Source: Escherichia coli (lineage in GTDB: Bacteria > Pseudomonadota > Gammaproteobacteria > Enterobacterales > Enterobacteriaceae). From it: a DNA stretch of 64,000 nucleotides. Positions 1,784 to 14,741 of the stretch are shown one piece after another; position 1 is the first letter of the stretch; every line of letters begins with the position of its first letter. The stretch lies in assembly GCF_050920415.1 (NCBI RefSeq), contig NZ_CP169309.1; one strand, 5' to 3'. A program made the translations under genes and the position numbers. A model generated the notes under the pieces. That model made no database searches, was not told where the DNA came from, and saw nothing but the letters and a program-made list of their open reading frames with translations.

Positions 1784-2476
1784 CTAGTGATAACCACACG
1801 CGGTCATAAAATCCGTAATCGCTTTTTCTGCATCAACCAGCACCTTTTCCAGTGGCTGATTGGCGTCGATATCAACCAGTTGTGCACCACCAAAGGTTAA
1901 CTGTGGCGTTATGGCAATCTTTCTCGCCAGCGATTCCCGTTTATGGTCGGGTTTACGCGCGCAGGCAACTTCAAGGTCAACATTGAGTTTGATAACCAGA
2001 TCAGGCTTATGGCTCGCCATCCAGTGAAATGCTTTACGTTCCTGGCTTGCCAGCCATGAGACAAACCGGCCGCCTTCAACGTTAGGTGGGAACACCGTAC
2101 CATCGTAAGCGCCAGGAATTTGGTCCTGAGGATAACGATCGGTTAAGACAATCAGCCCGCGACGACGACAGGCGAGCATATGACGAAAGCGTAACAGTCG
2201 GCGGGCGACGAAAGCGGTGATCACCAGGGCCGGAACCGGACCCGGCAATTTTTTTGCCGTTTTCACTTCATTTTTTTCAATAGTCTTGTGCAGAGACTTT
2301 CCCATCAACGGTAATTTTGTCACTGCACGACCGACATTTCCGGCCTGTTTTCCTAAATGAACTCTTTCGGCAGCACCATATTTTTCGACAACGGTAATAA
2401 GATGTTCACACACCGTTGACTTGCCTGAACCATCGCTACCAATAACGGCAATTAATGGAGGTGTTATTGACTGCAT
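1784..2476 (-). CDS. yghT: P-loop NTPase, kinase-like (Walker A plus DRY motif); paralog of YghS and YghR
   Basis: 230 aa. Walker [14 protein letters not shown], then LTDRYPQD and ARKPDH motifs shared with the next two genes. No ABC signature (LSGGQ). The fold call (thymidylate/nucleoside kinase-like) is by motif only. Confidence 0.8.
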
Positions 2477-2649: not shown

Positions 2650-3363
2650 GTGAATCAACGTAATATGTCAATAATTAATTCCACGCCAGTGCGTGTTATT
2701 GCCATTGTAGGATGTGATGGTTCAGGTAAATCGACCCTCACGGCAAGCCTGGTAAATGAACTGGCAGCAACAATGCCAACAGAACACATTTATCTCGGGC
2801 AATCGTCCGGGCGAATTGGCGAATGGATTTCACAGCTCCCTGTTATTGGCGCACCTTTTGGGCGTTATCTGCGAAGTAAAGCGGCACATGTGCACGAAAA
2901 GCCCTCCACACCGCCTGGCAATATTACTGCGCTGGTTATCTATCTGCTTTCCTGCTGGCGGGCGTATAAGTTTCGCAAAATGTTGTGTAAAAGCCAGCAA
3001 GGCTATCTGCTCATCACCGACCGCTACCCGCAGGTTGAAGTGCCGGGTTTTCGCTTTGATGGCCCGCAACTGGCAAAAAACACGGGCGGTAACGGCTGGA
3101 TAAAAATGTTAAGACAGCGCGAGCTCAAACTTTACCAATGGATGGCGTCTTATTTGCCCGTATTGTTGATTCGTCTTGGCATTGATGAACAAACCGCGTT
3201 TGCGCGTAAACCTGACCACCAACTGGCGGCGTTACAGGAAAAAATCGCTGTTACGCCGCAACTGACATTCAATGGTGCAAAGATCCTTGAACTGGATGGT
3301 CGGCAACCCGCCGATGAAATTCTGCAAGCGTCACTACGCGCAATTCACGCCGCGCTTTCCTGA
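2650..3363 (+). CDS. yghS: P-loop NTPase, kinase-like; paralog of YghT and YghR
   Basis: 237 aa. Walker A IAIVGCDGSGKST, ITDRYPQ, ARKPDHQLAALQEKIAVTPQLTF; collinear with YghT. Confidence 0.8.
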   Translation: MNQRNMSIINSTPVRVIAIVGCDGSGKSTLTASLVNELAATMPTEHIYLGQSSGRIGEWISQLPVIGAPFGRYLRSKAAHVHEKPSTPPGNITALVIYLLSCWRAYKFRKMLCKSQQGYLLITDRYPQVEVPGFRFDGPQLAKNTGGNGWIKMLRQRELKLYQWMASYLPVLLIRLGIDEQTAFARKPDHQLAALQEKIAVTPQLTFNGAKILELDGRQPADEILQASLRAIHAALS

Positions 3364-3393
3364 TCACCAAATGGATAGGGGATGATTTAACGA

Positions 3394-4152
3394 ATGGATG
3401 CACTACAAACACAAACTGTTAATAGTACAACCGCGCCGCAGCCCAACTACATTCCGGGGCTGATTGCGGTGGTCGGGTGTGATGGCACCGGTAAATCCAC
3501 ACTGACCACTGACCTGGTGAAATCGCTGCAACAACACTGGCAAACCGAGCGCCGCTATCTGGGGCTGCTCTCCGGCGAAGACGGCGACAAAATCAAACGG
3601 TTGCCGCTCGTTGGCGTCTGGCTGGAACGGCGACTGGCGGCCAAATCCTCGAAAACCCAAAGCATGAAAACCAAATCTCCGGCGCTATGGGCGGCGGTGA
3701 TTATGTACTGCTTCTCGCTGCGAAGAATGGCGAATCTACGCAAGGTTCAGCGACTGGCGCAAAGTGGCGTTCTGGTGGTCAGCGATCGCTTCCCGCAGGC
3801 TGAAATTTCGGGCTTTTATTATGACGGACCGGGGATTGGCATCGAGCGTGCGACCGGGAAAATCAGCATGTTTCTGGCCCAGCGCGAACGGCGTTTATAC
3901 CAAAAAATGGCGCAATACCGTCCTGAATTAATTATTCGTTTGGGGATTGATATTGATACTGCCATCTCCCGCAAGCCTGACCATGACTATGCCGAGCTGC
4001 AGGACAAAATCGGTGTCATGTCGACGATTGGCTATAACGGCACAAAAATTCTTGAGATTGATTCCAGAGCGCCCTACAGCGAAGTGCTGGAACAGGCACA
4101 GAAGGCGGTTTCTCTGGTTGCAATCGTTTCTGACCGCCGAAGTTTAACTTAA
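3394..4152 (+). CDS. yghR: P-loop NTPase, kinase-like; paralog of YghT and YghS
   Basis: 252 aa. Walker A IAVVGCDGTGKST, VSDRFPQ, SRKPDHDYAELQDKIG; third copy of the same fold. Confidence 0.8.
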   Translation: MDALQTQTVNSTTAPQPNYIPGLIAVVGCDGTGKSTLTTDLVKSLQQHWQTERRYLGLLSGEDGDKIKRLPLVGVWLERRLAAKSSKTQSMKTKSPALWAAVIMYCFSLRRMANLRKVQRLAQSGVLVVSDRFPQAEISGFYYDGPGIGIERATGKISMFLAQRERRLYQKMAQYRPELIIRLGIDIDTAISRKPDHDYAELQDKIGVMSTIGYNGTKILEIDSRAPYSEVLEQAQKAVSLVAIVSDRRSLT

Positions 4153-4197
4153 GGTTGGCGGGATACTTTTTATTATCAACGATAAGGTCAGGCTGAA

Positions 4198-5547
4198 TTG
4201 GCGGGGTTTAACATCAAACATTGGTTTGCAGATGGCGCGTTTCGCACCATTATTCGCAATAGCGCCTGGTTAGGCTCCAGTAATGTCGTGAGCGCTTTGC
4301 TGGGTCTGTTGGCGCTCTCGTGTGCCGGTAAAGGGATGACGCCCGCCATGTTTGGCGTACTGGTGATTGTGCAATCGTACGCCAAGTCGATCAGCGATTT
4401 TATTAAGTTTCAGACATGGCAGCTGGTGGTTCAGTACGGAACGCCAGCCTTGACCAATAATAATCCGCAGCAATTTCGCAATGTCGTCTCATTTTCCTTC
4501 TCGTTGGATATCGTCAGCGGCGCGGTGGCGATTGTCGGCGGCATTGCCTTACTCCCTTTTCTTTCCCATTCATTAGGTCTGGATGACCAAAGCTTTTGGC
4601 TGGCAGCGCTGTATTGCACGCTCATTCCTTCAATGGCTTCCTCCACACCGACCGGCATTCTGCGTGCAGTAGATCGCTTCGATTTGATTGCTGTACAGCA
4701 GGCGACGAAACCTTTTCTGCGCGCAGCGGGGAGCGTCGTAGCCTGGTATTTTGATTTTGGTTTTGCGGGTTTTGTTATTGCCTGGTACGCATCGAATCTG
4801 GTTGGCGGCACCATGTACTGGTGGTTTGCCGCGCGCGAATTACGCCGCAGAAATATCCATAACGCCTTCAAATTGAATCTGTTTGAGTCTGCCCGACACA
4901 TTAAAGGCGCGTGGAGTTTTGTCTGGTCAACCAACATTGCCCACTCCATCTGGTCGGCACGTAACTCGTGCAGCACAGTGTTGGTGGGGATCGTGTTAGG
5001 ACCCGCTGCCGCCGGGTTATTTAAAATCGCCATGACATTCTTCGATGCCGCCGGAACGCCAGCGGGTTTACTGGGCAAAAGTTTTTACCCAGAGGTGATG
5101 CGTTTAGATCCGCGTACCACCAGACCGTGGTTGTTAGGCGTGAAGTCCGGTTTACTGGCGGGCGGAATCGGTATTCTGGTGGCGCTCGCGGTGTTGATCG
5201 TCGGCAAGCCGCTCATTTCGCTGGTGTTTGGCGTTAAGTATCTCGAAGCGTATGACCTGATTCAGGTGATGCTTGGCGCAATTGTGATTTCGATGCTGGG
5301 CTTCCCACAGGAGTCATTGCTATTGATGGCGGGAAAACAGCGCGCTTTTCTCGTGGCGCAAACCATCGCCTCAATCGGCTACATCGTATTGCTGTTCATG
5401 TTCTGTCATCTGTTTGGCGTGCTGGGGGCTGCATTTGCTTACTTCGGTGGGCAATGTCTGGATGTGGTGCTCTCGTTAATTCCAACCTTAAAGGCATTTT
5501 TTCAGCGCCATTCCTTGCTTTATAACGCAGCCGGAGAGAAATCCTGA
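4198..5547 (+). CDS. yghQ: Multi-pass inner-membrane protein, MOP/polysaccharide-biosynthesis (Wzx/MurJ-like) flippase family
   Basis: 449 aa, highly hydrophobic throughout with many predicted TM segments. The track start is a TTG; the true start may be the internal ATG at about 4333. The stop overlaps the next ORF's start (TGATG). Confidence 0.7.
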   Translation: MAGFNIKHWFADGAFRTIIRNSAWLGSSNVVSALLGLLALSCAGKGMTPAMFGVLVIVQSYAKSISDFIKFQTWQLVVQYGTPALTNNNPQQFRNVVSFSFSLDIVSGAVAIVGGIALLPFLSHSLGLDDQSFWLAALYCTLIPSMASSTPTGILRAVDRFDLIAVQQATKPFLRAAGSVVAWYFDFGFAGFVIAWYASNLVGGTMYWWFAARELRRRNIHNAFKLNLFESARHIKGAWSFVWSTNIAHSIWSARNSCSTVLVGIVLGPAAAGLFKIAMTFFDAAGTPAGLLGKSFYPEVMRLDPRTTRPWLLGVKSGLLAGGIGILVALAVLIVGKPLISLVFGVKYLEAYDLIQVMLGAIVISMLGFPQESLLLMAGKQRAFLVAQTIASIGYIVLLFMFCHLFGVLGAAFAYFGGQCLDVVLSLIPTLKAFFQRHSLLYNAAGEKS

Positions 5548-5993
5548 TGATGAGAAAATATTTCCCGCTTGAGGCGAGCGAGCGTCTATTTATTGCAGTT
5601 GAAGAAGATGATGTCGTTGATGCGCAGGTCAGTTTACCGCCGACTATCGCAACAGGTTGTACCACCGAAATCATTCATGATAATTACGCGTTATGCCTGC
5701 AATTCTGGCTGAATGGCGTTGATCGTCAGGAATTACTGCGTTTAATCCACAAACAAGCCAAAGGCGAGGGGCTTACGGCTGACGAGCGTAAACAGTTTAA
5801 ATATATGCGGGCGCGTTATAAGCATCTACGTTTTGCCCAACGGTTGTATTTAAAAAAGCATCAGGCCGGATTTTTATTTGGCAAAACGACCGTTTTTCTT
5901 GGACGTTTTCAGGACGGCTTTCGTAACGGTAAGAAAAATATTGTGTCGTTTTACGGCAACCTTTTACGGATTTATTTAAGCTCTCCGGTCTAG
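5547..5993 (+). CDS. Hypothetical protein, no recognisable motif
   Basis: 148 aa ORF whose ATG overlaps the yghQ stop (translational coupling), same strand as neighbours. Basic, soluble-looking. Confidence 0.5.
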   Translation: MMRKYFPLEASERLFIAVEEDDVVDAQVSLPPTIATGCTTEIIHDNYALCLQFWLNGVDRQELLRLIHKQAKGEGLTADERKQFKYMRARYKHLRFAQRLYLKKHQAGFLFGKTTVFLGRFQDGFRNGKKNIVSFYGNLLRIYLSSPV

Positions 5994-6371
5994 TTGTTGG
6001 TGAACTATTCATTACGCCATAGCCAGTTAGAAAGCGTAAGCGGTTTTATTGCCTATCGGCAAAAGCAAATGCACCTCCTGAAAGAGATTATTGCCAAACC
6101 ACGGCTAACTGGCAGGGAATTTCATGATGTACGAAAAATAATCAGCCAGCAGGTTTCTTATTACGACACCCTAAGATCGCTTGATCCTGAAAATAAAGAA
6201 GCGTTACAGATTTCCCGCTTCCTCGCCGCCATTAATGGCCTGATGGGGGATAAACACGACGACATGGTGGCGGATGATATGGAAAACCGCCAGTCGTATG
6301 ATGCACCGATGGCGCTGGATAGCGATATTCGTCAGCGCTTAGAACTGCTGATTTCGCGTTTTCCGCTATAA
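5994..6371 (+). CDS. Hypothetical protein, start uncertain
   Basis: 125 aa ORF immediately after the previous stop. The track start is TTG; the first in-frame ATG is at about 6069. No motif recognised. Confidence 0.35.
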   Translation: MLVNYSLRHSQLESVSGFIAYRQKQMHLLKEIIAKPRLTGREFHDVRKIISQQVSYYDTLRSLDPENKEALQISRFLAAINGLMGDKHDDMVADDMENRQSYDAPMALDSDIRQRLELLISRFPL

Positions 6372-6379
6372 CCGGAGCA

Positions 6380-6943
6380 ATGATGTCATCTCGTTTGATT
6401 ATTGCGCTGATTATCATGCTCTTAGCCCCGGGTGTGCAGGCGCACAATTTCGTCACTGGTAAAACGGTTACCCCTGTTTATATCCAGGAAGGCGGCGAGC
6501 TGCTTCTGAATAGCGACGACGAAATTCACTACCAAAAGTGGAACAGCACACAGCTGGCGGGAAAAGTCCGCATTATTCAGTATATCGCCGGGCGTAAGTC
6601 GGCGAAGAAAAAGAACTCACTGTTAATTAAAGCGGTTGAAGCGGCAAACTTTCCGCAGGATCGTTTTCAGCCCACCACCATTGTGAACACCGATGATGCC
6701 ATCTTTGGTACTGGCTATTTTGTCGTTGGCAAAATCGAAAAAAATAAACGCCGCTATCCGTGGGCGCAATTCGTTATTGACGGCAATGGACAGGGACGCG
6801 TTGTCTGGCGGTTGCCGGAGCAGAGTTCAACCATTCTGGTGCTGAATAAAGCCGGGCAAATTCAGTGGGCAAAGGACGGCAGCCTGACGCCGGAAGAGGT
6901 AGATCATGTCATTGCGCTGGCGCAGAAGCTGATCAATGAATAA
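6380..6943 (+). CDS. Secreted/periplasmic protein with cleavable signal peptide, function unknown
   Basis: 187 aa. N-terminus MMSSRLIIALIIMLLAPGVQA|HN is a typical Sec signal peptide. It lies directly upstream of the LptF/LptG-like pair. Any YtfJ-like or LptA/LptC-like assignment is unverified. Confidence 0.6.
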   Translation: MMSSRLIIALIIMLLAPGVQAHNFVTGKTVTPVYIQEGGELLLNSDDEIHYQKWNSTQLAGKVRIIQYIAGRKSAKKKNSLLIKAVEAANFPQDRFQPTTIVNTDDAIFGTGYFVVGKIEKNKRRYPWAQFVIDGNGQGRVVWRLPEQSSTILVLNKAGQIQWAKDGSLTPEEVDHVIALAQKLINE

Positions 6944-6973
6944 AAAACTCAAAGGATTGAGGGCGTTAGTGAG

Positions 6974-8044
6974 ATGAAGCTGGTTGAACACTACATCATG
7001 CGTGGTACGCGCCGTCTGGTGCTGATTATCGTCGGTTTTCTGATCTTTATTTTCGCCAGCTACTCCGCACAGCGTTATCTGACCGAAGCGGCAAATGGGA
7101 CATTAGCTCTTGATGTTGTGCTGGATATTGTTTTCTACAAGGTGCTGATTGCACTGGAGATGTTGTTACCTGTTGGACTGTATGTGTCAGTTGGCGTGAC
7201 GCTAGGGCAGATGTATACCGACTCGGAAATTACCGCTATTTCTGCGGCGGGGGGGAGTCCGGGACGCTTGTACAAAGCCGTTCTTTATCTGGCGATACCG
7301 CTAAGTATTTTTGTCACCCTTCTGTCGATGTATGGTCGTCCGTGGGCTTATGCGCAGATTTATCAACTGGAGCAACAGTCGCAGTCGGAGCTGGATGTTC
7401 GCCAGTTGCGGGCAAAGAAATTTAACACTAACGATAACGGACGAATGATCCTTTCGCAGACGGTTGATCAGGATAATAATCGCCTGACTGACGTGCTGAT
7501 TTATACTTCTACTGCCAATCGAACCCGTATTTTCCGCGCCCGTTCGGTTGATGTAGTTGACCCATCACCCGAGAAACCGACCGTTATGTTGCATAACGGG
7601 ACCGCCTATCTTCTCGATCATCAGGGGCGTGACGACAACGAACAGATCTACCGTAATCTGCAATTGCATCTGAATCCGCTGGATCAAAGCCCTAACGTCA
7701 AACGCAAAGCAAAATCGGTCACGGAGCTGGCGCGCTCCGCCTTTCCTGCCGATCATGCCGAACTGCAATGGCGACAAAGCCGTGGCCTGACAGCATTGTT
7801 GATGGCGCTGCTGGCCATTTCATTAAGTCGGGTAAAACCGCGGCAAGGGCGATTTTCAACGTTATTGCCACTGACGTTGCTGTTTGTTGCCATTTTTTAT
7901 GGCGGCGACGTCTGCCGTACGCTGGTGGCTAACGGCGCGATTCCCCTCATTCCTGGTTTGTGGTTAGTACCCGGACTCATGCTAATGGGCCTGCTGATGC
8001 TGGTCGCACGCGACTTCTCTTTGCTGCAGAAATTTTCCCGATGA
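6974..8044 (+). CDS. LptF/LptG-family (YjgP/YjgQ) permease, paralog 1
   Basis: 356 aa. N-terminal TM helix, then a large periplasmic domain and C-terminal TM bundle, matching the LptF/LptG topology. Stop overlaps the next start (ATGA). Confidence 0.8.
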   Translation: MKLVEHYIMRGTRRLVLIIVGFLIFIFASYSAQRYLTEAANGTLALDVVLDIVFYKVLIALEMLLPVGLYVSVGVTLGQMYTDSEITAISAAGGSPGRLYKAVLYLAIPLSIFVTLLSMYGRPWAYAQIYQLEQQSQSELDVRQLRAKKFNTNDNGRMILSQTVDQDNNRLTDVLIYTSTANRTRIFRARSVDVVDPSPEKPTVMLHNGTAYLLDHQGRDDNEQIYRNLQLHLNPLDQSPNVKRKAKSVTELARSAFPADHAELQWRQSRGLTALLMALLAISLSRVKPRQGRFSTLLPLTLLFVAIFYGGDVCRTLVANGAIPLIPGLWLVPGLMLMGLLMLVARDFSLLQKFSR

Positions 8045-9120
8045 ATGTTTTCAGTCGCTATTTAATTCGTCATCTCTTTCTCGGTTTTGCCGCCGCCGCA
8101 GGGCTATTGCTGCCGCTCTTTACCACCTTCAACCTGATTAACGAACTGGATGATGTCAGCCCGGGTGGTTATCGCTGGACTCAGGCGGTGCTGGTGGTGC
8201 TGATGACCTTACCGCGCACACTGGTCGAACTTTCGCCGTTTATCGCCTTATTGGGAGGGATTGTCGGCCTGGGGCAGTTATCGAAAAACAGTGAGCTTAC
8301 CGCCATTCGCAGCACGGGGTTTTCTATCTTCCGTATTGCACTGGTGGCGCTGGTTGCCGGGATATTGTGGACTGTTTCATTAGGCACGATAGATGAGTGG
8401 GTGGCGTCGCCATTGCAGCAACAGGCGCTGCAAATCAAATCGACTGCCACTGCGTTGGGGGAGGACGATGACATTACCGGCAATATGCTGTGGGCCAGGC
8501 GTGGTAATGAATTTGTGACGGTGAAATCGCTGAACGAGCAGGGCCAGCCGGTGGGCGTGGAGATATTTCATTACCGCGACGATCTCTCGCTCGAATCCTA
8601 CATTTATGCACGCAGTGCCACCATTGAAGACGACAAAACGTGGATCCTGCATGGTGTGAATCATAAAAAATGGCTGAATGGCAAAGAAACGCTGGAAACA
8701 TCTGATAATCTTGCCTGGCAATCGGCCTTCACCAGTATGAATCTTGAAGAGTTATCGATGCCGGGAAATACTTTTTCTGTCCGTCAACTTAATCATTACA
8801 TCCATTATTTGCAGGAAACCGGGCAACCCAGCAGCGAATACCGCTTTGCACTGTGGGAAAAACTGGGACAACCCATCTTGACCCTTGCGATGATTTTGCT
8901 GGCTGTGCCGTTTACCTTTAGTGCCCCGCGTTCGCCTGGGATGGGTAGCCGTCTCGCTGTAGGCGTCATCGTGGGGTTACTCACCTGGAGCAGCTATCAA
9001 ATCATGGTCAATCTGGGATTGCTATTTGCGTTGAGCGCACCTGTTACCGCGCTCGGTTTACCGATAGCGTTTATGCTGGTGGCGTTGAGCCTGGTGTATT
9101 GGTATGACAGTCAACATTAA
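8041..9120 (+). CDS. LptF/LptG-family (YjgP/YjgQ) permease, paralog 2
   Basis: Start taken at the ATG at 8041 (MNVFSRYLIRHLFLGF...), not the longer track ORF from 7960. LGQLSKNSELTAIRSTGFS parallels LptG LGMLAQRSELVVMQASGFT. Periplasmic middle domain and C-terminal TMs. Confidence 0.8.
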   Translation: MNVFSRYLIRHLFLGFAAAAGLLLPLFTTFNLINELDDVSPGGYRWTQAVLVVLMTLPRTLVELSPFIALLGGIVGLGQLSKNSELTAIRSTGFSIFRIALVALVAGILWTVSLGTIDEWVASPLQQQALQIKSTATALGEDDDITGNMLWARRGNEFVTVKSLNEQGQPVGVEIFHYRDDLSLESYIYARSATIEDDKTWILHGVNHKKWLNGKETLETSDNLAWQSAFTSMNLEELSMPGNTFSVRQLNHYIHYLQETGQPSSEYRFALWEKLGQPILTLAMILLAVPFTFSAPRSPGMGSRLAVGVIVGLLTWSSYQIMVNLGLLFALSAPVTALGLPIAFMLVALSLVYWYDSQH

Positions 9121-9154: not shown

Positions 9155-10327
9155 TTACTGCTTCAGAGTAGCAAATGCCTGAATGATGGCATCGATTTGC
9201 TCACGAGTGTGGGCAGCGTTTACGCTACAGCGCAGCAGCGTGATGCCTGCAGGCGCGGCAGGTGGCAGGATAAGATTCACATAAACGCCCAGCGAAATAA
9301 GCTCGCGCCAGATGCGTAAACCTTCCTCTTTCGAACCGATTATTACTGGCACTACCGGGCTAATATGTGAACTTAACTCGTAACCCAGTTTTTGCAGACC
9401 GTCATACAGATGGCTGGCGTTATCCATCAGCTTTTGCCGCAACTCTGGTTGTGAGGCAATGGTTCTTAACGACGAGCGCACGGTCGCAATGCAGGACGGA
9501 GAAGGAGAGGCGGTAAAAATATACGGGCGGCTGCCGTAGCGCAGCACTTCCATCGCTTCCGAACCGACAGCAAAACCGCCAATCGAGGCCAGACTTTTAC
9601 TGAAAGTACCAACGATAATATCCACATCATCTTCAACGCCAACGGCTTCAGCCAGTCCGCGCCCCGTTGCGCCTAACACGCCAAACGAATGCGCTTCATC
9701 GACAATCAAATAACCACCGAGACGACGTTTGATATCAACAATTTCCGCCAGCGGCGCAACGTCACCGAGCATACTGTAGATGCCTTCAACGATGATAATC
9801 GCCTCTTTTGCCCGTTCACCGAGGCGAACCATGCGCCGTTCCAGATCTTTAGCATCGTTATGGCGGAAACGAATAATTTCCGCTCCACCGAGAGAACAGG
9901 CGTCATAAATACTGGCGTGGCTATCGGCATCCAGTAACACCACGGCGTTATGGTCGGCAAGTGCGCTGATGACACCTAAATTAGCGGTATAACCGGTTGA
10001 AAAAACGATAGCGGTAGGGCGATTGAAAAACTCGGCAATCTCTTTCTCTAACGCCAGATGTGGCGCATAGCTGCCATTAGCCATACGAGAACCGGTAGTG
10101 CCGGTGCCTTGTGCCGCTAATGCTGCCTGACCTTCGGTGATGGCATCATGATTGAAAGTTAAACCGAGATAATTATTAGTCCCGGCCAGAATCACTTTTT
10201 TATTGCCGATACGGCCTTCAGTGGCGGAGTACACTTCATCAATACAGGTACCAAACGGCGTTAATCCGTTGTCACTAAATTGCAGTCGCTCGCCAGCAAG
10301 GCGCGCATATTTATCGTATAGCCCCAT
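9155..10327 (-). CDS. PLP-dependent alpha-oxoamine synthase (serine palmitoyltransferase / KBL / BioF family)
   Basis: 390 aa. Motifs DEAHSFGVLGATGRG and GTFSKSLASIGGF (PLP lysine) are hallmarks of alpha-oxoamine synthases. Start overlaps the ACP stop by 1 nt. Confidence 0.85.
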   Translation of the reverse strand: MGLYDKYARLAGERLQFSDNGLTPFGTCIDEVYSATEGRIGNKKVILAGTNNYLGLTFNHDAITEGQAALAAQGTGTTGSRMANGSYAPHLALEKEIAEFFNRPTAIVFSTGYTANLGVISALADHNAVVLLDADSHASIYDACSLGGAEIIRFRHNDAKDLERRMVRLGERAKEAIIIVEGIYSMLGDVAPLAEIVDIKRRLGGYLIVDEAHSFGVLGATGRGLAEAVGVEDDVDIIVGTFSKSLASIGGFAVGSEAMEVLRYGSRPYIFTASPSPSCIATVRSSLRTIASQPELRQKLMDNASHLYDGLQKLGYELSSHISPVVPVIIGSKEEGLRIWRELISLGVYVNLILPPAAPAGITLLRCSVNAAHTREQIDAIIQAFATLKQ

Positions 10328-10575
10328 TATTTATTCTCCAGCCATGGAAGTAGAGTTTCCATTAATTGCGCAGGGGTTTTGACATCCAGCAGAATATTAA
10401 TAGGAATGGAAATATCGAATCTGTCTTCCAGCATCATTAAGAGATCCATCACTTTGATCGACTCCAGGCCAAGATCGTTGACGAGATCGCTGTCGGGCTT
10501 AATTTCCACACCGTTTTCGACCAAATCCTGTAAACAGGAAAGGATGTAATCCATTACTATTTCACGATTTACCAT
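10327..10575 (-). CDS. Acyl carrier protein (phosphopantetheine-binding)
   Basis: 82 aa acidic protein. DLGLESIKVMDL is a candidate 4'-phosphopantetheine attachment site. Lies between the synthase and the reductase. Confidence 0.75.
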   Translation of the reverse strand: MVNREIVMDYILSCLQDLVENGVEIKPDSDLVNDLGLESIKVMDLLMMLEDRFDISIPINILLDVKTPAQLMETLLPWLENK

Positions 10576-10606: not shown

Positions 10607-11521
10607 TCAAAATAGCCCGCTGCGTAATGCGTGTTCCAGGCTAATCCCGGGAAACCAATTAATATCTTCAGAAATACGGTTATTACTTGCTGACCAGTCG
10701 GCGTGGGTTAATTCACGGATTTTCGAGCGGGTCAGCATAGGTTCTTTACCTGCCAGGCGACTCAACGCGGTACTGATATCCGCAAGGCAGGTGAGTACCG
10801 ACAGAGGAATACCAACCATTCGAACGGAACCGCAACGGGCGTCGGCGGCAAGTTGCTGTACGCGTTGCCAGTCATAGCCGCCGGCGACGCCATCGCATAA
10901 TTCATAGGTTTGCGTTTGTACAGTTTCGGCGCTTAACCACTGCCCCACGGCTTGCGCGAAATCGGTGACGTGCAGGAAAGAGAGCTGTGTATCTGGCGCA
11001 CCAAGTCGTGGCAGCAGGCCGCGCAGCATCCAGCCAAACAGCGGTTTTAACTCTTTATCGCCGGGACCATACACGGCTGTCGGGCGAAAAATGCCCAGCG
11101 TAATTTCGTCAGCCATTGCGGTCAGTCGTTGTTCGGCGACGTGTTTGGAATTTGCGTACCAGGAGAGTTCGGGATGGCGCGCCGCCAGCGAAGAGATAAA
11201 CAGAAAACGTTGGCAAAAGCCGCTCTCTTTTGCCGCTTGCATCAGGCGCAGGCTGCCGTCAACGTTACAGCGGGTAAAAATCTCTTCTTTGTGTCCGCGC
11301 ACTTGCCCGGCGCAATGGACCACCGCGCTGGCTCCGGCAACCAGTTCGCTAAGCGAATGTGTATCTTCCAGCGAACCGCGCACCCAGATGAGATTATCAT
11401 TGACGTGAGCGCGGGCAGTACGCGTCAATGCGCGAACGTGAAAGCCGCGGGCGAGCAGGTTATCGATAATATATTTACCGATAAACCCGGTAGCGCCCGT
11501 CACCGCGACAGTTTGATTCAT
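10607..11521 (-). CDS. NAD(P)-dependent epimerase/dehydratase-family reductase (extended SDR)
   Basis: 304 aa. N-terminal Rossmann motif VAVTGATGFIG and catalytic YANSK (YxxxK). Start overlaps the ligase stop (ATGA). Confidence 0.8.
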   Translation of the reverse strand: MNQTVAVTGATGFIGKYIIDNLLARGFHVRALTRTARAHVNDNLIWVRGSLEDTHSLSELVAGASAVVHCAGQVRGHKEEIFTRCNVDGSLRLMQAAKESGFCQRFLFISSLAARHPELSWYANSKHVAEQRLTAMADEITLGIFRPTAVYGPGDKELKPLFGWMLRGLLPRLGAPDTQLSFLHVTDFAQAVGQWLSAETVQTQTYELCDGVAGGYDWQRVQQLAADARCGSVRMVGIPLSVLTCLADISTALSRLAGKEPMLTRSKIRELTHADWSASNNRISEDINWFPGISLEHALRSGLF

Positions 11522-13236
11522 GCCATGGATTCCTGCACATGAAGGCTTGCAGCATAACGTTTTTTCGCTTCCGCACGGGCAGGCTTGCCGGAGGACGTTC
11601 GGGGAATACTGTGGGGCGGCAACAGATCGATAGCCGCTGTTACGCCAAATTCGCTTTGGATCCGTGCTGCCAGTGCGTGGATAAGCTGCCCACGACGTTC
11701 TTCGTCGCTGATCCTACACTGGATCTGCAAAATGATTTTTTCCTGGGCGGTAACAAAAGCAATCGCATCGCCAGAATGAATTTCCGGTTCCTGTTCCGCA
11801 ATATATTCAATATCCTGCGGCCAGATATTACGGCCACGAATAATAATCAGATCTTTAATGCGCCCGGTGACATACAGATAACCATCCAGCAGATAACCGA
11901 GGTCGCCGGTATCTAACCAGCCCGTCGCGGCAATCTCGTCTTGCGAAACCTGGTCGCCAAAGTAACCGCTCATCAGGCTGGGGCCGGAGATGCAAATATG
12001 GCCTACCACACGTTCCGCGACCGGCATACCTGCTTCATTGCGGATTTCAATGCCATGTTCCGGCAACGCTTTACCGCAGTTGACGAAAGTCGATACGGCG
12101 CGTGTTTCAGCACCCGGCGCGACGGCTTTGCCCTGATATTCAAGGATGTCGCGATCCACTTCGTTAACCACAACCCCGGAGGCTTCATCAGAGAAGCTGA
12201 CAGCCAGCGCATTTTCTGCCAGTCCGTAGCACGGCATGAAAGTTTTATCGTCAAAGTTAACCTGACGGAAACATTCAGCAAATTGGTGGAGTTGTTCTGC
12301 GGAGATGGGTTCTGCGCCAATACCAGCGACGCGCCAGCACGAGAGATCCAGTTCAGCGAGATCTTTTTCATTCACGCGGCGCTGACACAATTCATAGCCA
12401 AACGGCGGCGCGACGGAAACTGTGCCACGATTTTTACTGATCAATTTAAGCCATTGCAGCGGACGCATGGCAAAATCCTGAGTGCGCAAATAATCTACTG
12501 AGAGCTGCGTGGCGACGGGGGTCAGGAGAAAGCCGACCAGTCCCATATCATGGTAGAAAGGCAGCCAGGAGACGCAGCGGTCGCCAGGGCGTAATTTAAT
12601 GCCATCGTGGCTTATAGCACGTAGATTAGCCATCACTTCGCGATGGGTGATAATGACGCCACGGGGAAAACGGGTGCTGCCGGAGGTGTACTGGAGGTAG
12701 GCGATATCGTTCGGAACTGGACGCTGGAGTACAACATCGGCTTCCGGTAATGCCTTAAACCAGGCGTGGCTTAAAACATGTAATTCGGGGTTGTTATGCG
12801 TAGCAGCATTGACCAGTGGCAACCACTCATCACCAGTGATAATGGCTGCGGGCTGGCAACTAGCCAGTAAACCTTGCAGTTTAGCGCTCCAGGAATCCCG
12901 CTGACCGACGCCCATTGGAATCGCTAACGGGACGGCGACTAAGCCGGCATACTGGCAGGCAAAAAAAGCCTCTACAAACCCGCTACTCGTTTCGGCAATC
13001 AGCGCCACGCGATCGCCTTTTTTCAGATTTAGTGATAACAACCGCTTCGCACCAGCTTCGGCACACGCTTTTAACGTCTGATATTCCAGTTGATCTTCAA
13101 GTTGGCAACGTCTGTCATAAAAATTCATTCCGGCGCTACTCAGAGCGGCGTAGTCCAAAGCATCAACCAGCGTTGGAAAATCGGCATAGCGCATAGGTAG
13201 GGAATGCGTAAAGATGTTATTAGACATATACACCAC
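11518..13236 (-). CDS. Fatty-acyl-AMP ligase / acyl-ACP synthetase (adenylate-forming enzyme)
   Basis: 572 aa. AMP-binding motifs YTSGSTRFPRGV, DTGDLGY and GRIKDLIIIRGRNIWPQDIE. The exact start (Met1, Met4 or Met15) is uncertain. Confidence 0.85.
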   Translation of the reverse strand: MVYMSNNIFTHSLPMRYADFPTLVDALDYAALSSAGMNFYDRRCQLEDQLEYQTLKACAEAGAKRLLSLNLKKGDRVALIAETSSGFVEAFFACQYAGLVAVPLAIPMGVGQRDSWSAKLQGLLASCQPAAIITGDEWLPLVNAATHNNPELHVLSHAWFKALPEADVVLQRPVPNDIAYLQYTSGSTRFPRGVIITHREVMANLRAISHDGIKLRPGDRCVSWLPFYHDMGLVGFLLTPVATQLSVDYLRTQDFAMRPLQWLKLISKNRGTVSVAPPFGYELCQRRVNEKDLAELDLSCWRVAGIGAEPISAEQLHQFAECFRQVNFDDKTFMPCYGLAENALAVSFSDEASGVVVNEVDRDILEYQGKAVAPGAETRAVSTFVNCGKALPEHGIEIRNEAGMPVAERVVGHICISGPSLMSGYFGDQVSQDEIAATGWLDTGDLGYLLDGYLYVTGRIKDLIIIRGRNIWPQDIEYIAEQEPEIHSGDAIAFVTAQEKIILQIQCRISDEERRGQLIHALAARIQSEFGVTAAIDLLPPHSIPRTSSGKPARAEAKKRYAASLHVQESMA

Positions 13237-13598
13237 GAAAAAAATTGGATATCAGAAATAAAATGACAATAATGCGGTGGATTATATAGGCATAAAAGAT
13301 AAATGAGATAGTATTTTCATCGGTGCGATATTGAACATTGATTTAAATAATAGGTTTGGCTTTGTTGTTTTTATTGTGAATTATATTTAATTTATGAATA
13401 TATTAAGAAGAAGCCTTGTTTGGTTGCCTTAAATCGACAAAAGGCATTGAGGCGCTTCTGTGTAGTCTCTGACCTTATCTTAATTATTAATAAATACTAT
13501 TTATTCTTTGTTTGTATTCTTTGGGTTGATTATTAAGATGCCGTTCGTTGCTGTTGCAATCTGTTTGTCACCGTTAATTATTTGTTATCCACAGAGAT
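13237..13598. promoter_or_regulatory. AT-rich divergent promoter region between the ligase operon and yghO
   Basis: 362 bp non-coding stretch with long A/T tracts (for example TTTAAATAATAGG, TTATATTTAATTTATGAATATATTAAG). No ORF. Candidate nucleoid-protein (H-NS-like) silenced promoter. Confidence 0.4.
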
Positions 13599-14741
13599 AT
13601 GGAATGCGATCTGCTGATGATTAAAATTGAAAAAGTAATTAATAAAAATGACCTTAAGGCATTTATCGCTTTTCCGTCATCACTTTATCCCGATGATCCA
13701 AACTGGATACCCCCTTTGTTCATTGAACGCAGCGAGCATTTGTCGGCGAAGAATCCGGGGACGGACCATATTATCTGGCAGGCGTGGGTAGCAAAAAAAG
13801 CGGGGCAGATAGTCGGGCGGATTACCGCGCAAATCGATACCTTGCACCGCGAGCGTTACGGTGACGATACCGGTCATTTCGGCATGATTGACGCCATTGA
13901 TGATCCGCAGGTTTTTGCCGCGTTGTTTGGCGCAGCGGAAGCGTGGTTGAAGTCACAAGGTGCAAGTAAGATCAGCGGGCCTTTCAGCCTGAATATCAAT
14001 CAGGAAAGCGGATTACTGATTGAAGGTTTCGACACTCCGCCCTGTGCGATGATGCCGCACGGTAAACCGTGGTATGCCGCGCATATTGAACAATTGGGTT
14101 ATCACAAAGGTATTGATTTACTGGCGTGGTGGATGCAACGAACCGATCTCACTTTCTCTCCGGCGCTAAAAAAACTGATGGATCAGGTGCGCAAAAAGGT
14201 GACCATTCGCTGCATCAAGCGCCAGCGGTTTGCCGAAGAGATGCTGATCCTGCGTGAGATTTTCAACTCTGGCTGGCAGCACAACTGGGGATTTGTGCCG
14301 TTTACCGAACATGAATTCGCTACCATGGGCGATCAACTAAAGTATCTGGTACCGGACGATATGATCTACGTCGCCGAGATTGATTCTGCTCCCTGCGCGT
14401 TTATAGTCGGCTTGCCGAACATCAACGAGGCGATTGCCGATCTGAACGGAGCGCTCTTTCCCTTCGGCTGGGCAAAATTGCTGTGGCGCTTAAAAGTCAG
14501 CGGTGTGCGAACTGCGCGAGTGCCGCTGATGGGCGTGCGTGACGAGTATCAGTTCAGCCGCATCGGCCCGGTGATTGCGCTGTTATTGATTGAAGCCTTA
14601 CGCGATCCGTTTGCTCGCCGGAAGATCGATGCGCTGGAAATGTCATGGATCCTCGAAACCAATACAGGCATGAATAACATGCTGGAACGCATTGGAGCGG
14701 AGCCGTACAAGCGTTACCGATTGTATGAAAAGCAGATTTGA
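13599..14741 (+). CDS. yghO: YghO-family protein, probably acyl-CoA N-acyltransferase fold (GNAT-like)
   Basis: 380 aa intact ORF. I recognise the name from its position next to glcC. The GNAT-like assignment is from memory of annotations, not from a motif I can point to. Confidence 0.65.
   Translation: MECDLLMIKIEKVINKNDLKAFIAFPSSLYPDDPNWIPPLFIERSEHLSAKNPGTDHIIWQAWVAKKAGQIVGRITAQIDTLHRERYGDDTGHFGMIDAIDDPQVFAALFGAAEAWLKSQGASKISGPFSLNINQESGLLIEGFDTPPCAMMPHGKPWYAAHIEQLGYHKGIDLLAWWMQRTDLTFSPALKKLMDQVRKKVTIRCIKRQRFAEEMLILREIFNSGWQHNWGFVPFTEHEFATMGDQLKYLVPDDMIYVAEIDSAPCAFIVGLPNINEAIADLNGALFPFGWAKLLWRLKVSGVRTARVPLMGVRDEYQFSRIGPVIALLLIEALRDPFARRKIDALEMSWILETNTGMNNMLERIGAEPYKRYRLYEKQI

Follow-up and report, generated by a model that had tools for sequence, protein, structure and literature searches.

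What does Escherichia coli export through a second pair of LptF/LptG-type permeases, and which ATPase drives them, given that they close a run of genes that encodes no ATP-binding cassette (ABC) ATPase? The question is raised by a 64000-base stretch of E. coli DNA (hereafter the window; contig NZ_CP169309.1 of assembly GCF_050920415.1), in which lptF2 (6974-8044) and lptG2 (8041-9120), both on the plus strand, end a run of genes that starts at 2650 and that converges on spt, a serine palmitoyltransferase gene. Our analysis indicates that LptF2 and LptG2, together with LptB, probably export a sphingolipid made by the locus itself, and suggests that the kinase-like proteins and a CHAD-fold protein may build or handle the head group of this lipid, with YghQ as a candidate flippase; as part of the same overall explanation, we consider it likely that the region from 2650 to 9120 makes up the left half of a sphingolipid locus of E. 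coli. Export of such a lipid is supported by the evidence below, yet it had already been proposed (in 2024) and tested in Caulobacter, in work that also draws the E. coli locus, and hence the main observation, although genuine, is already known.

The permease pair and its ceramide-pathway neighbours

Both permeases belong to the LptF/LptG family, as had been put forward in an earlier reading of this DNA made from its letters alone (the sequence-only reading). LptF2 scored 323.4 bits with TIGR04407 (cutoff 230) and LptG2 304 bits with TIGR04408 (cutoff 240), PF03739 matched them with 188.6 and 231 bits, respectively, and each aligned over its full length with a solved chain: residues 7-343 of LptF2 with the LptF chain 5x5y_F (E 1.9e-32), and residues 1-352 of LptG2 with the E. 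coli LptG chain 6mhu_G (E 7.5e-41). The start of lptG2 at 8041 was set from RefSeq and the alignment with LptG. Identity to the housekeeping K-12 proteins, whose genes occupy another chromosomal site, is only 29% for LptF2 and 27% for LptG2, and the two are therefore old paralogs of LptF and LptG.

The lipid-biosynthesis genes that the sequence-only reading had placed next to the permeases constitute a ceramide pathway. Thirty-four nt downstream of lptG2 lies the convergent spt (9155-10327, minus strand; so named in RefSeq), followed on the minus strand by acpR (10327-10575), for a specialised acyl carrier protein, a cerR-like gene (10607-11521), for a nicotinamide adenine dinucleotide (NAD)-dependent reductase of the epimerase/dehydratase family, and aasR (11518-13227), for a fatty acyl-AMP ligase/acyl-AcpR synthetase; yghO (13599-14741, plus strand), for an N-acyltransferase of the bCerS/'aca' type, is the fifth ceramide gene according to PMC9386255. 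Spt matched NF047599 with 599.6 bits (cutoff 500) and AasR matched NF006624, a fatty acyl-AMP ligase model, with 871 bits (cutoff 600). Moreover, Spt, AcpR and AasR of E. coli BL21, when expressed, yield 3-oxo-sphinganine, and the five dihydroceramide genes were found clustered only in C. crescentus and E. coli BL21 (PMC9386255).

We examined how far permeases and ceramide genes remain together across species in a scan based on the family of the 274-aa CHAD-fold protein encoded at 5547-6371 (described below). A 13-sequence alignment was used, the 76-sequence alignment being too poor in conserved stretches for a genome scan, and one genome per species was taken, which gave 79 loci whose open reading frames (ORFs) were called and then searched with the proteins of the window; for two of the three distant relatives, the contigs were shorter than 2 kb and held no usable gene context. 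Both permeases are encoded in 40 of the 79 loci, and 35 of these 40 also carry spt, acp, cerR and aasR, the remaining five being truncated stretches; yghO and spt co-occur in 42 loci. Within Enterobacterales we found at least four gene orders, with the spt operon downstream and convergent, or upstream on the same strand, with lptF2 and lptG2 split off and divergent, or with the kinase genes at the far side, and all 13 genes, from yghT to yghO, stay together throughout. A linkage that persists through rearrangement is good evidence of shared function. All 13 genes are also maintained by selection, judging from ratios of nonsynonymous to synonymous substitution rates (dN/dS) of 0.02-0.15 in comparisons with two other Escherichia species.

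This selection bears on the best-surviving alternative, namely a silent or vestigial cluster in E. coli, with permeases that have no working role and a locus as dispensable as it is in K-12. The cluster is covered to at least 80% in 4057 of the 5426 complete E. coli genomes, and about a quarter of them lack most of it. K-12 has an IS5 element (NC_000913.3, 3130146-3131340; positions 6147-7341 of the K-12 locus, L007) in place of the 3' part of yghQ through the 5' end of yghO; yghQ and yghO persist in truncated form, whereas the CHAD-fold gene, the ytfJ-like gene, lptF2, lptG2 and the whole spt operon are gone, from which it follows that the LptF2/LptG2 pair is non-essential. This deletion carries no obvious laboratory cost, one gene of the window contains a nonsense mutation, and we found no report in the literature of a native E. 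coli sphingolipid, all of which would suit a silent cluster. Set against these points are the strong purifying selection on every one of the 13 genes, the conservation of the full set across many Enterobacterales genera despite rearrangement, the restriction of the nonsense codon to this strain, and the enzymatic competence of BL21 Spt, AcpR and AasR (PMC9386255), and we regard a silent cluster as unlikely.

LptB-docking residues and the substrate cavity

The cluster contains no ABC ATPase gene, as the sequence-only reading had said, and among the 40 loci with both permeases an ABC-like ORF occurs in the flank of only three, each time at least 5.2 kb from lptG2. The same reading had singled out the lack of an ATPase of the pair's own, but an ATPase-free permease operon is less odd than was thought: K-12 lptF-lptG is flanked by pepA and yjgR, with no adjacent ATPase gene, and lptB lies in the distant lptCAB operon.

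Whether LptF2 and LptG2 retain the means to borrow LptB can be read from their coupling helices, whose residues govern LptB binding (PMC5082905). In an alignment of 41-44 LptF2/LptG2 paralogs from other species with housekeeping LptF and LptG, the LptB-docking glutamates are conserved (LptF E84 in 41/41 and LptG E88 in 41/42 paralogs), and LptF Y80, A90 and G92 and LptG G96 are retained in almost all. The coupling helices share 50% (LptF) and 37.5% (LptG) identity with the housekeeping ones, compared to 24% and 27%, respectively, overall. LptF2 and LptG2 would thus dock the housekeeping LptB through conserved coupling helices, as we infer from these residues and from the analogous Caulobacter proteins.

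In Caulobacter, the sphingolipid region encodes a second LptC, LptF and LptG and a putative flippase, CC_1166 (IPR002797), and these were proposed to carry phosphosphingolipids to the outer membrane (PMC11324152, 2024). More recently, Caulobacter LptF2 and LptG2 were reported to co-purify and both to pull down the single LptB, and lptF2, lptG2 and lptC2 to be deletable only in spt or cpgB mutants, in which no anionic sphingolipid is made (Uchendu, Isom and Klein, bioRxiv preprint, April 2026, 10.64898/2026.04.12.717747); Figure 2B of that study draws the locus of E. coli UTI89 beside that of Caulobacter. Borrowing of LptB, one of the options that the sequence-only reading had drawn from the missing ATPase, thus agrees both with the docking residues and with the pull-downs of the Caulobacter equivalents, and its broader proposal, an envelope export route for the lipid made by the adjacent genes, is supported by the linkage in 35 of 40 loci, its persistence through at least four gene orders, the docking residues and the Caulobacter pull-down and deletion genetics.

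The residues that line the substrate cavity differ from those of the lipopolysaccharide (LPS) extractor. Among the lipid-A and core contacts of housekeeping LptF and LptG listed in PMC6744409, those of LptG are replaced in the paralogs at K34 (by N, D or T), K40 (by E or D), K41 (by D) and R133 (by L or Q), and those of LptF at K322 (by N) and Q248 (by A or S); the outcome at the LptF K317 column varies with the alignment used. One phosphate-binding cluster remains basic, with LptF R33 unchanged, R in place of LptG K62 and K in place of LptG R136, and the full cationic set for the lipid-A phosphates and inner core (LptG K34, K40, K41, R133, R136 and K62; LptF R33, K317 and K322) is not kept. 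Judged from the alignment, two features of the LPS extractor are missing from the substrate cavity of the paralogs, its second phosphate site and its core sites. With one basic cluster kept and the other contacts lost or reversed, the LptF2/LptG2 cavity would suit a lipid with one anionic site rather than bis-phosphorylated lipid A with its core.

These substitutions argue against an alternative in which LptF2 and LptG2 extract LPS, for instance with modified lipid A or under stress, and lie beside ceramide genes by coincidence. In its favour, both proteins pass the LptF and LptG 'equivalog' models, RefSeq names them accordingly, and one lipid-A phosphate-binding cluster persists. The contacts to the 4'-phosphate and inner core are, however, charge-reversed or lost in all paralogs, and K34E in housekeeping LptG is lethal (PMC6744409); furthermore, coincidence fits poorly with a linkage to spt that survives at least four gene orders, and the Caulobacter equivalents become dispensable once sphingolipid synthesis is removed (10.64898/2026.04.12.717747). 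We therefore judge an alternative LPS extractor to be improbable, and favour a sphingolipid as the substrate of the pair.

Putative head-group and periplasmic proteins

Upstream of the permeases, yghS (2650-3363, plus strand) and yghR (3394-4152, plus strand) encode thymidylate-kinase-like P-loop proteins, of which a third paralog, yghT (1784-2476, minus strand; dN/dS 0.05), is divergent from yghS. YghS, YghR and YghT form three orthologous groups conserved across species and have in common GxDGxGKST as Walker A motif, a motif of the DRY type (DRYPQ in YghS) and a lid-like RKPDH. Their scores with the deoxythymidine monophosphate (dTMP) kinase model TIGR00041 are 24.7, 31.3 and 25.7 bits, respectively, far under the cutoff of 83.25, so that the label 'dTMP kinase' given to yghS and yghT in RefSeq is unsupported and seems to over-annotate what is a distinct P-loop family. 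The nearest PDB structures to the family profile are thymidylate kinases, with a weak match for YghS (E 1.7e-6), and a PDB sequence search with YghR alone gave no meaningful match. Two other relationships were considered and rejected. The profile matched 276 PDB entries, headed by thymidylate kinases, and no polyphosphate kinase 2 appears in the 60 that were listed; and homology to CpgB is excluded, as this bacterial ceramide kinase is of the diacylglycerol kinase (DAGK_cat) type with a GGDG motif (PMC10331486), whereas the proteins of the window are P-loop proteins. The literature on yghS, yghR, yghT and yghQ that we found consists of incidental mentions only.

That YghS, YghR and YghT rather than LptB energise the permeases or YghQ as a non-ABC motor is very improbable: they are annotated as ATP-binding and share a gene run that has no ABC ATPase, but the only relatives that could be detected for them, thymidylate kinases, transfer phosphate to small molecules and differ from ABC nucleotide-binding domains, the permease coupling helices retain the LptB-groove residues, the kinase genes are separated from lptF2 and lptG2 in several Enterobacterales, and in Sphingomonadales and Acetobacteraceae they travel with yghQ and the CHAD-fold gene with no lptFG nearby.

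YghQ (4198-5547, plus strand), which the sequence-only reading had called a MOP-family flippase, is better described as a distant member. It matched PF01943 (Polysacc_synt) with 34.0 bits (E 2.7e-8) and PF13440 with 31.6 bits, and with NF007773 it reached 34 bits, far under the cutoff of 273; these matches indicate a distant MOP-superfamily membrane protein and a candidate flippase. A yghQ-like gene is found in 70 of the 79 loci and adjoins the CHAD-fold gene in nearly all 70.

The CHAD-fold gene itself (5547-6371, plus strand) had been read as two ORFs of unassigned function, orf148 (5547-5993) and orf125 (5994-6371). The two share one frame, interrupted only by the amber codon TAG at 5991-5993, and in the near-identical genome of strain MFDS1022581 (NZ_CP169399.1) this codon is TGG and RefSeq annotates a single 274-aa protein, so the two ORFs are one gene. 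The G-to-A change at 5992 is the sole difference between the two genomes in the first 19.4 kb and one of 5 in 64000 bases; the other four, at 28560, 30874, 52113 and 59724, comprise sslE T1293M, gspC T68A, one intergenic change and one synonymous change in rsmE. A 61-mer around this codon found matches in 2475 complete E. coli genomes, none of them exact and the best with one mismatch, and TAG at 5991-5993 occurred in none of these genomes. Either the amber codon is thus confined to this strain, perhaps as a recent loss of function, or it results from a sequencing error.

The predicted structure of the 274-aa protein (predicted local distance difference test, pLDDT, 97.1; predicted template modelling score, pTM, 0.93) has the fold of the CHAD domain (PF05235). 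No Pfam model matched the E. coli protein, even at E<=10, and a PDB sequence search with the family profile gave no meaningful match; the PF05235 model detected 3 of 76 relatives with a threshold of E<=0.001, and relaxing this to E<=0.1 raised the number to 21. The family comprises about 197 clusters at 50% identity, and its conserved Arg, Lys and His residues are compatible with an anionic ligand. CHAD domains are polyphosphate-binding modules, and we found no literature linking them to sphingolipids. In Luteibacter (loci L048 and L054) and in a Sphingomonas metagenome-assembled genome (L084), CHAD-fold genes occur as tandem pairs or as a fused gene for a double-length protein (P0123, 564 aa); longer fusion relatives also exist (P0256, 1155 aa; P0258, 976 aa; P0269, 983 aa), whose N-terminal parts had no match in an NCBIfam scan.

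Between the CHAD-fold gene and lptF2, the gene at 6380/6383-6943 (plus strand) encodes a secreted YtfJ-family protein of 186/187 aa (TIGR01626, 209.4 bits, cutoff 151.1; PF09695, 198 bits), whose N-terminus reads as a signal peptide (MSSRLIIALIIMLLAPGVQA). An OstA/LptA-like beta-jellyroll, suggested for it in the sequence-only reading, is excluded by the structure prediction (pLDDT 85.9; an alpha/beta thioredoxin-like fold) and by a Foldseek search against the PDB, which returned 552 matches at E<=0.001, the 50 listed being all thioredoxin-like; a PDB sequence search gave no meaningful match. Family and fold notwithstanding, the protein has no cysteine at all, and hence no redox CxxC motif, so that it is no redox enzyme. 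It has instead an invariant basic loop, A69-G-R-x-x-A-K-K-K-N78, situated roughly at the place of the thioredoxin CxxC as judged from the secondary structure of the model, not from superposition; in this predicted structure, the loop hints at an anionic ligand. Nor did phmmer searches with K-12 LptA and LptC reveal an LptA-like or LptC-like ORF in any of the 79 loci.

The kinases are encoded in most of the 79 loci, and the module of kinases, yghQ and CHAD-fold gene recurs among proteobacteria that produce sphingolipids, in Enterobacterales, Lysobacterales, Sphingomonadales and Acetobacteraceae. In Lysobacterales, the spt operon is in the same cluster; in Sphingomonadales and Acetobacteraceae, spt is not found within 10 kb. 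The metagenomic contig ERR13912362_8334 (L008) carries, besides the kinase/yghQ/CHAD-fold trio, spt, acp, a pair of lptFG genes and genes for a DAGK-type (CpgB-like) kinase, a PAP2 phosphatase and an Asp/Arg hydroxylase-family protein, and its content indicates that the P-loop kinases coexist with a CpgB-type kinase and do not replace it.

These data can be assembled into the following scheme. AasR would load a fatty acid onto AcpR and Spt condense it with serine, as the E. coli enzymes do upon expression (PMC9386255), after which YghO, by homology, would N-acylate and the CerR-like reductase reduce the product to dihydroceramide. In the cytoplasm, YghT, YghS, YghR and the CHAD-fold protein may then assemble or process a head group that is anionic and probably carries phosphate, and YghQ, as its distant MOP matches tentatively suggest, may move the lipid to the periplasmic leaflet. 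LptF2 and LptG2 would form the transmembrane part of an ABC extractor that docks the housekeeping LptB dimer, a role to which residue conservation, synteny and Caulobacter all point, and that would transfer the lipid onto the shared Lpt bridge, by which it would reach the outer membrane, with the secreted cysteine-free YtfJ-like protein as a putative periplasmic accessory.

A more specific version concerns the head group. It is possible, though we hold it only tentatively, that YghT, YghS, YghR, YghQ and the CHAD-fold protein, joined in Enterobacterales by the YtfJ-like protein, are a module for an anionic sphingolipid head group unlike that of Caulobacter ceramide phosphoglycerate, the product being a ceramide mono-, di- or oligophosphate. 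The thymidylate-kinase-like enzymes would then add phosphate onto phosphate, the CHAD-fold protein would hold a phosphate-rich ligand, and the MOP transporter, whose superfamily has pyrophosphate-linked lipids as known substrates, would flip the lipid; LptB-LptF2G2 would place in the outer membrane a ceramide phosphate that K-12 cannot make.

Several points weigh against export of a locus-made sphingolipid by LptF2 and LptG2. Native sphingolipid from the spt locus is, as mentioned, missing from the E. coli literature that we found, and the extractor experiments all come from Caulobacter. The Caulobacter head-group genes (DAGK-type CpgB, a Tam41-like gene and CpgA/CpgD) are not in the E. coli locus, and the E. 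coli substrate must therefore differ. The enterobacterial pair scores 83 and 126 bits against K-12 LptF and LptG, compared to 27 and 62 bits against the L008 pair, the only non-enterobacterial sphingolipid-locus pair compared; being closer to the K-12 proteins, it has its function transferred by context and not by phylogeny, and common descent of the enterobacterial and Caulobacter pairs is, on these sequences, unproven. The assignment of YghQ to the MOP superfamily rests on matches of ~34 bits. Finally, the Lysobacterales loci have no detectable lptF2G2 within 10 kb, and thus the other genes of the module do not obligatorily go together with the permeases.

Locus layout and comparison with known systems

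The sequence-only reading had counted eight co-directional genes from yghS to lptG2. The coordinates stand and the count does not: with orf148 and orf125 as one gene, which is interrupted in this strain alone, the number of genes in the plus-strand run falls to seven. The divergent yghT is an eighth member of the same module. Both overlaps of stop and start codons that had been noticed are present, TGATG at 5545-5549, where the yghQ stop overlaps the ATG of the CHAD-fold gene, and ATGA at 8041-8044, where lptF2 and lptG2 overlap by 4 nt; the remaining gaps in the run are of 30, 45, ~10 and 30 nt. Simple consensus scans found no terminator-like or promoter site above chance inside the run, and a sigma-70-like match at 2572-2600, in the presumed promoter region between yghT and yghS (2477-2649), is likewise not above chance, so that a single transcript is neither supported nor refuted. 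In vitro, FlhDC gave a weak peak in the K-12 yghS/yghT intergenic region by systematic evolution of ligands by exponential enrichment (SELEX) (PMC9962212).

At the left end of the window lies pitB (236-1735), and the window also contains the glc operon, sslE, the gsp-beta cluster for type II secretion and, as far as metK, housekeeping genes. Rfam scans placed the small RNA C0719 at 22205-22426 (minus strand; 285.6 bits) and a tRNA at 41278-41350 (minus strand), which is tRNA-Phe in the annotation of the near-identical genome. AT-rich stretches, with 36-37% G+C, are found at 13001-13500, in the divergent aasR/yghO intergenic region, and at 1-500, upstream of pitB.

Most natural E. coli possess the genes of a whole ceramide pathway together with a second lipid extractor, both lost from K-12, and K-12-based envelope biology may consequently miss an outer-membrane lipid of the species. 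This gap in K-12 has been pointed out in print; what we add is that the two supposed ORFs are one CHAD-fold gene, that the secreted protein has a redox-dead thioredoxin fold and is no bridge component, that the head-group genes are unlike those of Caulobacter, and that the permease cavity appears to lack the second phosphate and core sites. These points yield testable predictions on an E. coli lipid.

Compared with known systems, YghS, YghR and YghT have the Walker A, DRY and lid motifs of thymidylate kinases and related nucleoside monophosphate kinase-like phosphotransferases, but score far lower and form three paralogous groups tied to sphingolipid loci. CHAD domains (PF05235) are represented by the structures 6qv5, 3e0s, 6rn5 and 5a61, the last being E. 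coli YgiF, which has the domain in its C-terminal half; the 274-aa gene neighbours that of a MOP-type membrane protein in sphingolipid-associated loci, and not genes for triphosphate tunnel metalloenzymes or polyphosphate. LptF2 and LptG2 are of the same family as the permeases of housekeeping LptB2FGC, with the same full-length architecture and coupling-helix glutamates E84/E88, and the permease genes overlap in both cases (by 1 nt in the housekeeping K-12 pair and by 4 nt here); they differ in being only 27-29% identical, in having partly lost the lipid-A/core contacts, and in lying beside ceramide genes instead of pepA and yjgR. The closest parallel is Caulobacter LptF2/LptG2 (CCNA_01214/CCNA_01213), also a second PF03739 pair beside spt, acp, cerR, an acyl-ACP synthetase (ACP, acyl carrier protein) and a ceramide synthase, in a locus that likewise encodes a MOP-type putative flippase and no ATPase of its own. 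The E. coli locus departs from it in having no LptC2 and, in place of CpgA, CpgB, CpgC and CpgD, three thymidylate-kinase-like proteins, the CHAD-fold protein and the YtfJ-like protein.

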